A stretch of 64,000 nucleotides of DNA from Candidatus Fraserbacteria bacterium (GTDB lineage: Bacteria; Bipolaricaulota; Bipolaricaulia; RBG-16-55-9; DRXL01). Where the stretch lies: assembly GCA_947085185.1 (NCBI GenBank), contig CAMTVK010000006.1, forward strand, positions 52,721-116,720, given 5' to 3'. Below are positions 38,236-44,897 of the stretch, in pieces. The position numbers and the translations under genes are program-made. How positions within the stretch are numbered: position 1 is the stretch's first letter; every line of letters begins with the position of its first letter. The notes below the pieces were generated by a model. The model did no database searches. It was not told the origin of the DNA and saw only the letters and a program-made list of their open reading frames with translations.

Positions 38236-38766
38236 TTATTTATCTTTTTGCGACTCCTCGTATAGTCGGTTGACAAACTCCAGCACGCGCCGCTGGTCCA
38301 GCTCATCTAAGAGTTCGACTTTTCTACGAATGCGCTCGGGAAGCCCCATCTCGGCTTCTTTTGCGACTTTCTCTAAGAGTGCCTTCTGAGCGAGACGATG
38401 GGCTTTCCAGTTGGCGTCGCGCTCGACGTAGTTCACCTGCCAATTGGGGAGTTGGACAAGCAGCTCGTGCACTTGGCGATTGAGCGGCTCCAGATGTGGC
38501 CGACGAATGCGATAGAGCCCGTTCACTTGATTGGCTAAGAGCTGGCTATCTGTGAAGAAGATCACGCGCTTGGGATTATAGGGCAAGACCAGTTTGATCG
38601 CTTCGATGAGGGCGCGATATTCCGCGACGTTATTGGTAGTACGCCCGATATGTTCCGAGATCTCTTTGATGACGTTGCCCTCGGCATCGGTGATGACGAT
38701 GCCAATGGCGGCCTCGCCGGGGTTGCCCTGCGCCGCGCCGTCTACATTTACGAAGAGCTTTTCCAT
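38236..38766 (-). CDS. rnhA: Ribonuclease HI family protein
   Basis: VDGAAQGNPG, TNNVAEYRAL, DSQL, RDAN; ORF-track N-terminus overlaps a tRNA, so start set at MEKLF. Confidence 0.85.
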   Translation of the reverse strand: MEKLFVNVDGAAQGNPGEAAIGIVITDAEGNVIKEISEHIGRTTNNVAEYRALIEAIKLVLPYNPKRVIFFTDSQLLANQVNGLYRIRRPHLEPLNRQVHELLVQLPNWQVNYVERDANWKAHRLAQKALLEKVAKEAEMGLPERIRRKVELLDELDQRRVLEFVNRLYEESQKDK

Positions 38767-38807
38767 AAAATAACTGTGAACTTCGAGCTCATACCTTGGA
38801 ACTGTCC

Positions 38808-38883
38808 TGGTGGGCCCGGCAGGATTCGAACCTGCGACCAACCGGTTATGAGCCGGCCGCTCTGACCCCTGAGCTACGGGCCC
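38808..38883 (-). tRNA. tRNA-Ile2 (CAT, lysidine type); tRNA-Met less likely
   Basis: GGGCCCGTAGCTCAG..CTCATAAC..GGTTCGAATCC..GGGCCCACCA. Confidence 0.9.
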
Positions 38884-38929
38884 CGCTTTAACTATACTCA
38901 AGAGGGGCTGGGATCGTCAACTTGGGGGA

Positions 38930-41697: not shown

Positions 41698-41790
41698 AGT
41701 CCAGTCAAGAGGGGAAAACCCCGATAAGATCAAGGTTTTTTCGTGAAACGCTCAGAGAACTGTCAGAGTTCTGTCGTCAGGGTGTAGAGT

Positions 41791-42252
41791 ATGGAAGTAC
41801 GGATCGAGTTGGCGCGCTTAGCATACGCCGAAAATATCTTGCGGTGCACCAATGAGCCCCCAGAGATGGTCGAAGATTTGCTCTCTCTGGACGGCGAATT
41901 AGACAAGGCGCGCCGGTGGTTTGCCTTTGCGGAGGCCAAGCGACGGTTTGACTCCAATGTCGTCCGAGGACTCTTGGTCTATCTGTTCAGTCACTATGCG
42001 AGCGCGGAGTTCGACCCGCGCAAGCGCGAGCAGCTCGTGCGCGAGATCACCGAGGGGCGTGTGCGTATGCGCGATCTGACGATTGAGCGCTTGGCCGGCA
42101 CTCGACTCAGTTGGGAGCACATCTTTCGTTTGGTAGGCCGTCAGTTCAATCCCACCCGCGAGAAAGAGAAGATCAAGGAGCTGTATGCACAGCTCTACGT
42201 TTCGGCTTCGGCGCCTGCCATCCCCCGCACGGAGGTGCACTATGGATACTAA
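41791..42252 (+). CDS. Hypothetical helical protein; candidate divergent sigma/regulator
   Basis: Overlaps the downstream ZAS gene; C-terminal LSWEHIFRLVG loosely resembles a sigma4 HTH. Confidence 0.6.
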   Translation: MEVRIELARLAYAENILRCTNEPPEMVEDLLSLDGELDKARRWFAFAEAKRRFDSNVVRGLLVYLFSHYASAEFDPRKREQLVREITEGRVRMRDLTIERLAGTRLSWEHIFRLVGRQFNPTREKEKIKELYAQLYVSASAPAIPRTEVHYGY

Positions 42253-42811
42253 GTATTCCCCCCACCAGCTCCCTGAAGACGAGCTGCACCAAGAGAAGCT
42301 TTCCGAGTTCGCTGAGCTGTTGGCAGACTTAAGACAGCTTGAGTACCACGACCATCCCAGTGAAGATATCTTGCGGGCTTATGTAGCGAACAGATTATTA
42401 GACGATCCCCAGGCCGGGCGTGTTGGGGCGACCTTCCGTGATGAGCAAGCGTTCGAGAAGTTCTTGCGCGGGCGCATCCCCCACTGGACGCGCTCCGACG
42501 TGGCGATGCACGTCCTGACGTGCTCAGTCTGTCAGCAATACGTTATGCGTCTGCGGGCGAGCCGCTGGCAGCTGCTCAGCTTGGCCCGCCAGCGCCCCAA
42601 AGAAGAGCGAAATTGGCTGCGTCGTTTCGCGCTTGGAGCTTTAGCCAGTGCAGCTACAGCTGCGATCATCGCTGCTCTGTGGCTCTGGCCTGCCAGTCCA
42701 CCAACCCCAGCGTGTTGGATCGAAGAGCAATGCTGGCAGCAGGTGGTTCAAGGCAGCCCTCCGACAGGCGGTATCATGGTGGTGTATCGTACATCACGAG
42801 GGAGATTCTAA
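42242..42811 (+). CDS. Membrane-anchored zf-HC2/ZAS anti-sigma-like protein
   Basis: SD GGAGGTG; HPSEDILRAYV...HVLTCSVC (H..Hx3Cx2C), then RR + Ala-rich TM. Confidence 0.7.
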   Translation: MDTKYSPHQLPEDELHQEKLSEFAELLADLRQLEYHDHPSEDILRAYVANRLLDDPQAGRVGATFRDEQAFEKFLRGRIPHWTRSDVAMHVLTCSVCQQYVMRLRASRWQLLSLARQRPKEERNWLRRFALGALASAATAAIIAALWLWPASPPTPACWIEEQCWQQVVQGSPPTGGIMVVYRTSRGRF

Positions 42812-42899: not shown

Positions 42900-44897
42900 A
42901 TGTTCAAAGGTGTGAAGTTTCTGGCGGTAGCGATCTTACTTGCGCTCTTTGTCGGAGTGGCCTTCTCCAGCCAGTCCAATTCTGTGGTTCAAGCTCAGGC
43001 TCAGAAGATCTACAAGCTCGCGATCTTCGAGGACTTGACGAGCTTGAACAGCTTAGCCGTGTTGGGACCTAAGGCCACGGTGTGGAATTTTTATGTCCGA
43101 CTCAACGGGTGGGGGCCGAGCTTGTTCGGGCTCTCTGATAAGTTCGACGATTATATCCCAGGGATCGCCGACGCCAGCACCGAAGAAGAAGCGAACAAGA
43201 TGAAGACCATAGGCCCGGACAAGACGGCAACGATTAAGATCAAGAAGGGCATCAAGTGGTTCGACCCCAAGACCGGCAAAGAAGTAGGGGAGCTGACTGC
43301 CGAAGACGTCGCGTTCAGCTTCAACGCGATCATGGGGAAGAACGTCAAGGGCGAGCCCGCTTATAAGGGCATTGCCCCAGTGAAACTGGGCGGCAACTGG
43401 CCAGGCATTATTAACCCAGACTTCTTCGATCGCGCTGAGGTCGTGGACAGATATACAGTGAAGTTCTATCTGAAGGCCCAATGCAGCTATGACGGCTGGG
43501 ACGAGGGCCTGCTCTTTGCGCCCATCTTCAGCAAAGCGTACTGGGAGCCGAAGTTCGAAGCAGCAGCCAAGGCCGCTGACCCCGTCAAGGCCCTCTACGA
43601 GCACAAGGGCGACGACGAGCCTGTCATGGGCGGTTGGCTCTTCCAGAAGTGGGAGCCGGGGGCCTTCGCTGAATCTACGGCCAACAAGAATCACTACTTT
43701 GCTGGAGCCAAGTCCGTCCGACCATACTCCGGCGGCTACACTGAAGAAAAGCCCGGCGTCTATAAGTACACCCATACGACGAAGACCGCCTTCCCCTATG
43801 ACGGCGACCAAGGTTCAGCCATCCTCGATAAAGATAAACCCACGGTGAGATTGGAGCTGACCACTGGCCCGTTCGTAGATGCGACGCAGTGGCGCATCTA
43901 CGGCGATCAAGCCACAGCGGTCGCGGCGCTCATCAAGGGCGATGTGCACTTCATGCTCAACCCCTTAGGGGTGCAAGCGGGCTTCCGCAAGCAGCTCAAA
44001 GAAACCAAGGGCGTGGGCATCGCGGAGAACGCCGGCAACGGCTTGTTCTATATGTCCTTCAACCTGCGCCGCGAGCCCTTCAACGTCAAGGAGTTCCGCC
44101 AGGCAGCCTCTATTATGATCGACCGCGAGTTCGTCACGCAGCAGCTCCTGGCGGGCTTGGCCATCCCGACGTACTCTATTGTGCCGCTGGCCAACACCGG
44201 TTGGTATAACTCCAACATCAAGACCTACGGCAAGGGCCTGAAAGAAGCCGAGAAGGCTGATTTAGCCATCAAGCTCCTCAAGCAAGCCGGCTTCAGCTGG
44301 GATGTCGAGCCCAAAGTGGACATCCCCAATAATAGAGTCACGCCGGGACGCGGGCTGAAGTACAAGGGCAAGGCTGTGGCCCCCTTTGAGCTGCTCGCGC
44401 CGCACCAGGGCTATGACCCCCTGCGCGCGACCTTCGCTCTGCACATCGAGGAGCGCCTCAACAAGATCGGCATCCCTATCAAAGTGAACTTGACGGGGTT
44501 TAATACGATTGTCACCCGCGTCTTCGATGAGCAGAAGTTCGACGCGTGGATCTTGGGGTGGGGTCTGGGCGGCAAGTTCCCCAGCTACTTGGTGAGCTTC
44601 TTCCACAGCGAGAACTCTGGGCTGGGCGGCCACAACCCGCAAGGGTACAACAACCCCGAGTTCGACAAGATCGCCGATGAGTTCCGCGCAGCCTGCGAGC
44701 AAGCCAAGCTCAGAGAGCTGGCGTTCAAGATGCAGGAGATGCTCGCGGAAGAGCTGCCCTATGTGCCGCTCTTCAACGCCCCGCTCTTTGAGGCCTTCCG
44801 CGCCGATGCCTTCGTAGGCGATCGCATGCCCTACGAAAAAGTCTTCGATGGCATCCAAGGCACCAACGGCCTCATGAGCTACGTCCAGCTCAAGTAA
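42900..44897 (+). CDS. Peptide ABC substrate-binding protein (family 5)
   Basis: Signal peptide; TAEDVAFS, FNLRREPF..FRQA..IDR, YNNPEFD, AEELPYVPL. Confidence 0.9.
   Translation: MFKGVKFLAVAILLALFVGVAFSSQSNSVVQAQAQKIYKLAIFEDLTSLNSLAVLGPKATVWNFYVRLNGWGPSLFGLSDKFDDYIPGIADASTEEEANKMKTIGPDKTATIKIKKGIKWFDPKTGKEVGELTAEDVAFSFNAIMGKNVKGEPAYKGIAPVKLGGNWPGIINPDFFDRAEVVDRYTVKFYLKAQCSYDGWDEGLLFAPIFSKAYWEPKFEAAAKAADPVKALYEHKGDDEPVMGGWLFQKWEPGAFAESTANKNHYFAGAKSVRPYSGGYTEEKPGVYKYTHTTKTAFPYDGDQGSAILDKDKPTVRLELTTGPFVDATQWRIYGDQATAVAALIKGDVHFMLNPLGVQAGFRKQLKETKGVGIAENAGNGLFYMSFNLRREPFNVKEFRQAASIMIDREFVTQQLLAGLAIPTYSIVPLANTGWYNSNIKTYGKGLKEAEKADLAIKLLKQAGFSWDVEPKVDIPNNRVTPGRGLKYKGKAVAPFELLAPHQGYDPLRATFALHIEERLNKIGIPIKVNLTGFNTIVTRVFDEQKFDAWILGWGLGGKFPSYLVSFFHSENSGLGGHNPQGYNNPEFDKIADEFRAACEQAKLRELAFKMQEMLAEELPYVPLFNAPLFEAFRADAFVGDRMPYEKVFDGIQGTNGLMSYVQLK

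Follow-up and report, generated by a model that had tools for sequence, protein, structure and literature searches.

A stand-alone sigma4-like protein paired with a ZAS-type membrane protein and a TGTCAG box in one order of the Bipolaricaulota

The window (the whole 64-kb stretch of DNA that was analyzed) contains two overlapping genes on the plus strand. The first (41791..42252) encodes a protein of 153 residues that is predicted to be a stand-alone sigma4-like protein with a helical addition at its N-terminus and an insert of about 30 residues before the helix-turn-helix. The second (42242..42811) encodes a ZAS-type, membrane-anchored protein of 189 residues with a long spacer between its two histidines and a short outer tail. 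The genes have 11 nucleotides in common, in agreement with the overlap noted in the first-pass annotation. The pairing to which that annotation drew attention is also found elsewhere: the source genome holds three such pairs (on contig C6, which carries the window locus, and on contigs C5 and C2), and a gene with a ZAS motif lies directly behind 40 of 48 stand-alone sigma4 loci, the remaining eight lacking one as judged by a pattern search. Forty-two of 108 candidates proved to be homologues of the 153-residue protein, which was matched in 35 of 61 related genomes, and a broad profile detected the domain in 34 of the 35 genomes of the order and in 61 of 184 genomes of the phylum. The named homologues of the 189-residue protein come from Candidatus Bipolaricaulota. 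The gene pair is real and is conserved across one Bipolaricaulota order.

Its surroundings are conserved as well. The upstream neighbor is a gene for an FG-GAP protein at 12 of 12 orthologous loci, and the downstream gene for a peptide-binding protein is syntenic at 11 of 12. In the window the latter (42900..44897, plus strand; Pfam SBP_bac_5) specifies the family-5 binding protein of a peptide ABC transporter and heads a permease/ATPase cluster that extends to 49600. A terminator-like site was looked for in the intergenic stretch between the anti-sigma gene and the binding-protein gene and none was found; from the sequence, the binding-protein gene is a candidate co-transcribed target. Elsewhere in the window, the mechanically assigned start of an RNase H-like gene (38236-38901) falls in tRNA-like sequence, and its true start is probably further in.

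What kind of protein is the 153-residue product? It has no Pfam or NCBIfam match at E values up to 1, it contains no region-2 motif, in keeping with the absence of ECF region-2 hallmarks reported earlier, and it aligns solely to the C-terminal part of full-length relatives. An AlphaFold2 model (pLDDT 90.9) was compared with 48,161 chains, and ranks 1-5 were all sigma4 domains (3mzy, 3hug, 6ono, 5uxx, and 2h27; Z 4.0-4.3, rmsd 2.9-4.2, over 64-71 residues), with Z scores below the caution line of the tool (8). Nineteen of the best 50 structural rows were sigma chains, as judged from the titles or the nature of the entries. Other comparisons yielded less. Foldseek returned nothing at E 0.001 for the models of the 153-residue protein and of a full-length relative, the best row for the latter being E. 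coli sigmaE (E 0.36). A structure atlas gave no usable match for the 153-residue protein and, for the full-length relative, nothing beyond clusters without a name, a single cluster of Sigma70_r2 at 0.95, and sigma clusters whose TM was below 0.5. A narrow alignment found no match among solved-structure sequences at E 10 and none to ECF sigma4, to which the domain profile matched weakly (E 0.027).

The most conserved positions of the protein (W108, F112, G116, N120, P121, and R123, invariant in 43 rows) cluster on the predicted helix-turn-helix, which spans residues 108-140 (42112..42210, plus strand). A sigma4 fold and ancestry are predicted for the protein, on the consistency of the structural ranks and on the position of the domain behind a sigma2 domain in its relatives. 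Because it represents the region-4 half alone, it cannot be a complete sigma factor. The earlier suggestion of a highly divergent sigma factor accordingly holds for the descent of the protein, traced below, and only for half of its architecture.

The features that the first-pass annotation had seen in the partner are all present. The putative zinc site of the 189-residue protein (42353..42532, plus strand) consists of H38, H90, C94, and C97 in the motif H38...H90xxxC94xxC97, with 51 residues between the two histidines; all four are invariant in 34 rows. The ZAS signature as it is given in PMC2877774 and PMC4598750, HxxxCxxC plus a distal His or Cys, is found in 34 of 34 rows. A single hydrophobic segment (residues 130-148, 42629..42685, plus strand; Kyte-Doolittle 1.98) is the predicted transmembrane helix, and two cysteines of the tail, Cys158 and Cys164, are both kept in 29 of 34 aligned rows. 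The protein falls below the cut-offs of Pfam zf-HC2 (E 0.11, 13.1 bits as against the 22.2 needed) and of the NCBIfam anti-sigma models (E 0.005 and 0.12) because of its 51-residue spacer.

Modeling of the 153-residue protein in complex with the ZAS domain gave a score of 0.55, as compared with 0.01 for the best control; the runs agreed in at least 70% of contacts, and the pLDDT of the partner was at least 61. In calibration, 116 of 157 solved pairs and 2 of 215 mismatched pairs came up to the mark, but those that did so with a score of 0.60 or lower comprised only 18 solved pairs and both of the mismatches. As sigma4-ZAS complexes have already been solved (3hug), the score may show likeness only. 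We take the model to be weakly supportive of binding between the 153-residue protein and the ZAS domain.

The 153-residue protein has longer relatives. A profile search of 1.84 billion representatives yielded 30 matches; four of these were ankyrin proteins, which were dropped as false, and among the rest are proteins of 285-424 residues in which the domain lies at the C-terminus. Searches of genomes expanded these into a series of fused proteins, adjacent split genes (encoding about 260-300 and 140-165 residues), and C-terminal halves alone, and ZAS genes trail the fused, split, and sigma4-only forms alike. In the AlphaFold2 model of one fused member (pLDDT 88.7), the N-terminal half folds as an ECF sigma2 (ranks 1-8 all sigma factors, Z 6.9-8.0), and a profile comparison against 31 ECFs of the class pointed the same way, with a match to region 2 (E 2e-4). 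By these relationships, the 153-residue protein is derived from a highly divergent ECF-like sigma family. In full-length members of some 400-410 residues (L025, L026, L047, L078, and L079), sigma2 and sigma4 are separated by a conserved insert of about 120 residues, which is also kept in the split sigma2 genes. Three other proteins (P0087, P0090, and P0093) combine in a single polypeptide the C-terminal half of the sigma4-like domain, a directly adjoining long-spacer ZAS domain, and a membrane anchor.

A tree built from 74 domains unites both sigma4-only subfamilies of the order in one group (100/95) beside a fused member and places a sigma4-only group from family f8 within the split forms (100/97). 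The tree, which is midpoint-rooted and has flagged long branches, suggests two separate losses of sigma2, the loss in the f8 group apparently being independent. Members of this group (L186-L192, L195, L196, and L080-L082), whose helix reads RKPIDF, have ZAS-like neighbors in part.

We now turn to the sequence upstream of the pair. The palindrome AGAACT-N5-AGTTCT that had been noted there is present as an exact match (41756..41772, plus strand). As an operator we reject it: it is kept in none of 11 orthologous upstream regions inspected, and it is one of 21 perfect 6-N5-6 inverted repeats in the window. Judged by this comparison, the palindrome is a chance feature around a conserved box, since only its core, TGTCAG, is retained. 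The TGTCAG box (41761..41766, plus strand) occupies the -35 position and is the putative binding site of the 153-residue protein. Eighteen nucleotides after it comes a -10 hexamer of the housekeeping type, TAGAGT (41785..41790, plus strand), and TATAAT or a close variant stands at this place in 11 orthologues. At the window locus the hexamer stands directly against the start codon, an odd arrangement for a promoter; transcription from it would begin within the 153-residue gene. The mRNA for that gene probably comes from a second promoter-like element further upstream, AGTCAA-N16-TAAGAT (41703..41730, plus strand); RGTCAAG followed after 16-17 nucleotides by a TA box could be recognized by eye in 12 of 12 orthologous regions.

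The box is a general feature of the subfamily to which the window protein belongs. At 37 of 46 loci, from four families, the pattern YGTC(A/G)(G/A/T)-N17/18-TANNNT is present close to the start, the other nine being without it, and it is carried by 13 of 19 loci that were fetched after the box had been defined. Twenty-nine loci have a spacing of 18 and nine a spacing of 17; a spacing of 16 or 19 was seen in none. For comparison, shuffles of 48 regions gave a mean of 0.66 and a maximum of 4 occurrences, and ordinary upstream windows gave 27 in 1631. The consensus is TGTCAGAAA-N15-TATAAT, in which the -10 element (TANAAT-like) matches the housekeeping promoters of the genome. Reading of 31 loci of fused and split members revealed TGTCAG-N17-CGAC, an ECF-type promoter with the same -35, at four long sigma2-bearing members; TGTCAG, TGTTAG, or TGTCGG at other spacings at other members of the order; and ordinary TTGACA promoters or none at the f8 split loci. 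We also considered TGTCAG as the -35 element of an antisense promoter and rejected the idea, as the seven sites read have no antisense -10 element 17-18 nucleotides upstream. Some TGTCAA sites may be of the antisense-promoter type and were left out of use.

The second sigma4-only subfamily of the order has a different recognition helix, VSFSYQE in place of FNPTREK, and a different box. TATCRR-N18-TATACT was found at 19 of its 22 loci, the remaining three having TATCC or TATCT at the same place. The TGTCAG-type box occurs at 0 of these 22 loci and TATCRR at 0 of the 46 loci of the subfamily of the window protein; the related genomes are not independent of one another, and both boxes span several families. 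In family f3 TATCRR lies upstream of the pair, and in family f1 it stands between the two genes; the 12 sigma4-only loci of family f8 have neither type of box. That the box changes with the recognition helix makes the sigma4-only protein itself the likely reader. The TATC-type paralogue of the source genome is encoded at G000:C2:109212-109753 on the minus strand. In the TATC-type subfamily (L022:5713-6255 on G000:C2; P0092, P0095, and P0101) the sigma4-like domain is interrupted by an insert with a CxxC motif, which is possibly another metal or redox site.

Does the box occur beyond the pairs themselves? In the source genome TGTCAG-TANNNT peaks at a spacing of 18, with 12 sites as against 0-8 at other spacings. 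Among 184 genomes, the enrichment of TGTCAG-N18-TANRVT over spacings 12-15 is 5.0-fold in those of the order and 1.17-fold in the 149 others, a contrast that counts as one event because the order is one lineage. A hand tally gave 5.3-fold enrichment in the 19 genomes of the order that have sigma4 but no family sigma2, and about 1.8-fold in the order for the TATCRR class, little of it beyond the loci themselves. An exception is family f10, which is 1.6-fold enriched though the domain occurs in only 1 of its 19 genomes.

In the source genome, sites stand before genes for a permease of a peptide ABC transporter, a binding protein for branched-chain amino acids, a binding protein of family 5, a subtilase, and a hydrolase; one site falls within a gene, and three are followed by no gene. 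From other genomes 34 sites were picked among the listed matches, with a preference for strong -10 boxes and with some of the sites orthologous to one another. The 21 genes scanned behind these sites comprise four for binding proteins of family 5, two for amino-acid binding proteins, two for subtilases, one each for an M1 peptidase and a trypsin-like protein, two for components of ABC systems, seven others, and two without a family. By a crude signal-peptide rule, 4 of 8, 8 of 15, and 10 of 14 box genes scored positive as compared with 20 of 90 genes behind TTGAC promoters (p 0.02, 0.008). Together with the synteny of the binding-protein gene, this candidate regulon lends support to the proposed link to the ABC transporter and to secreted proteins. 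An extended -10 (TG) is absent from most sites, being present in 4 of 11 and 14 of 34; most sites would therefore be weak without help.

Some individual promoters deserve mention. At L121 (G000:C5:32307, plus strand) a conserved box-N18-TATAAT has no long sense gene close behind it, and in other species of the family this very promoter has TATCAG or TATCAA where L121 has TGTCAG; it is possible that L121 is a small-RNA promoter readable by either subfamily. A conserved TGTCAG-N18/19-TATAAT precedes L122:518-1765 (G000:C6), which encodes an archaeal-type Pus10 pseudouridine synthase (Pus10_C, Pus10_THUMP_arc). At six loci (L130, L131, L134, L025, L027, and L067) the -10 hexamer lies 5-8 nucleotides before the start codon, which suggests that leaderless transcripts may be frequent in this lineage.

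A private box at a fixed distance from a housekeeping -10 element, mostly with no extended -10, is the layout of a promoter that needs an activator at -35. We therefore lean, by a modest margin over an even chance, toward the view that the 153-residue protein is a sigma4-only activator under the control of an anti-sigma, with recognition of the -10 supplied by a housekeeping sigma factor. Its helix-turn-helix would bind TGTCAG at the -35 position and would activate transcription with a group 1/2 holoenzyme, the housekeeping sigma reading the -10. It might oust the housekeeping region 4 from the beta flap and sit there itself, in the manner of T4 sigma appropriation, or might contact region 4 of the housekeeping sigma in a class II-like manner. 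The ZAS protein would sequester it until a signal arrives from outside, and release might come about by intramembrane proteolysis or by loss of zinc, for which RsiW and RslA are precedents. The first-pass annotation had proposed a new class of membrane-sequestered regulator, and a membrane-sequestered regulator of a novel kind is what fits best. Since the box at the window locus lies over the gene start, the transcript would encode the anti-sigma without the activator, and in family f1 the box of the second subfamily, between the two genes, would likewise give an anti-sigma-only transcript. Activation would thus make more inhibitor, that is, a negative feedback loop, and at the window locus the anti-sigma transcript could run on into the peptide ABC cluster.

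An unlikely alternative, though the best of those considered, is that the sigma4-only protein is a repressor, which binds the same box and blocks the housekeeping holoenzyme, so that its release turns the regulon off. Sigma4 by itself cannot melt DNA, the box covers the -35 position and overlaps the start of its own gene at the window locus, and several loci have an overlapping TTGACA-type promoter, all of which would suit a repressor. The spacing, however, is nearly fixed at 18, which is tighter than occlusion requires, and most sites, with neither TTGACA nor an extended -10, would leave little to repress; repression of a promoter that serves the anti-sigma gene alone would, moreover, amount to positive feedback.

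Somewhat less probable still is a split sigma factor, in which an unlinked, unrecognized sigma2 subunit reads the TATAAT-like -10, as in SigO-RsoA and Tn916 Sig7-8. Two-gene forms do exist in the same protein family, and the sigma2 halves of the published cases are described as hard to recognize (PMC8103513; bioRxiv 10.64898/2026.10.01.756105). A 24-row profile, however, found the family sigma2 in 15 of 35 genomes of the order, as against 34 of 35 for the sigma4 half, and did not find it in the source genome (96.8% complete) at E values up to 10. The family sigma2 half was absent in this search from the source genome and from 19 other genomes of the order; the genomes are incomplete, and the search is one that a very divergent, unlinked sigma2 could escape. 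The source genome has five intact sigma factors, three of group 1/2 and two ordinary ECFs. The only further weak match to Sigma70_r2 is a spurious one on the opposite strand, where there is no sigma-like gene; it overlies what we take, from reading the sequence, to be a hydrogenase-maturation-type gene region. HTH_16, presumably the family of the RsoA-like proteins, had no match over the cut-off in the source genome, and its sub-cut-off matches were on the two ECFs only. Also at odds with a split sigma, the -10 consensus matches the housekeeping promoters of the genome.

The three group 1/2 sigma70 paralogues of this 1.7-Mb genome (G000:C7:30171-31181, C13:2348-3343, and C2:141627-142469) have a canonical region 4.2. 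All three keep the RER(I/V)RQIE -35 helix, and an altered housekeeping sigma was rejected on this ground as reader of the box. That another factor or a group 1/2 sigma reads the box, the sigma4-only protein being a non-DNA-binding decoy or chaperone for the ZAS protein, is improbable: in its favor stand the known sigma mimics, for example PhyR (PMC4598750), the presence of three group 1/2 sigmas in the genome, and the fused remnants that join half of the sigma4-like domain to a ZAS, but the canonical helices of those sigmas, the clustering of invariant residues on the helix-turn-helix, and the change of the box with the recognition helix all tell against it.

Returning to the sigma4-only activator, we entertain, at a little less than an even chance, a broader interpretation. 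The order would possess a lineage-wide class of host-encoded half-sigmas, exchangeable region-4 modules that have their own membrane anti-sigma and that plug into the housekeeping holoenzyme to reprogram its -35 specificity, with N-x-x-R reading TGTC and S-F-S-Y reading TATC, and with the fused, split, and half forms as an evolutionary series. If true, this would be a further way of switching promoters, intermediate between alternative sigma factors and classical activators, and an instance of an ECF sigma turning into an activator with its transmembrane signaling kept. The two helix-box pairs offer a ready test of specificity and possibly an orthogonal switch, and for an uncultured lineage a candidate regulator of peptide uptake and of secreted proteases can be named. 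What we have at present is a variant of the ECF/ZAS switch; if borne out by biochemistry, it would amount to a new way of reprogramming promoters.

Finally, we compare the system with those that are known, drawing also on material in bioRxiv 10.1101/2024.09.12.612765. Searches of the literature on sigma factors and promoters of Bipolaricaulota/Acetothermia and on sigma4-only, half, or truncated sigmas, with subscription papers largely outside their scope, turned up no description of it. ECF surveys, as set out in PMC7826278, demand both Pfam domains, and sigma4-only proteins are hence invisible to them. One close likeness is to ECF/ZAS pairs such as SigL-RslA (PDB 3hug), B. subtilis SigW-RsiW, and SigD-RsdA (PDB 3vep), in which a sigma-type gene is likewise followed by that for a membrane HxxxCxxC anti-sigma; a box likewise lies beside the pair, and the candidate targets are extracytoplasmic. 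In the case of M. tuberculosis SigL-RslA, RslA was crystallized on sigma4 alone (PMC2877774). Unlike these pairs, the window system has no sigma2 and a -10 of the housekeeping type, its sigma4, enlarged at the N-terminus and by an insert, goes undetected by Pfam, and the His-His spacer is 51 rather than the 24 given for RslA (His25/His50; PMC2877774). The 153-residue protein is thus not an ECF (group 4) sigma, having no sigma2 and a housekeeping -10, but it derives from one. ECF41 is likened by promoter sequence: its promoter, given as TGTCACA-n16-CGTC (PMC3426412), resembles TGTCAGA-n16-CGAC of the four full-length relatives, from which the ECF41 proteins differ as complete sigmas with a fused regulatory extension.

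With the two-subunit sigmas (B. subtilis SigO-RsoA, Tn916 Sig7-Sig8, and the proposed Francisella MtvS1-MtvS2) the system shares a region 4 on its own polypeptide, and the family includes relatives in which sigma2 and sigma4 are encoded by separate, neighboring genes. Unlike them, the window locus has no adjacent or detectable partner, and its sigma4 half is paired with an anti-sigma. In T4 AsiA-MotA, as described in PMC7403470 and PMC6755090, a private box replaces the -35 and the housekeeping sigma reads the -10, a hybrid promoter of the kind seen here. The present system differs in that it is host-encoded and consists of a single protein, which is a homologue of sigma4, would be controlled by an anti-sigma, and may displace the housekeeping sigma4. 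If our reading is right, its mode of working would be like sigma appropriation or class II activation, placed under membrane control of the ECF type.
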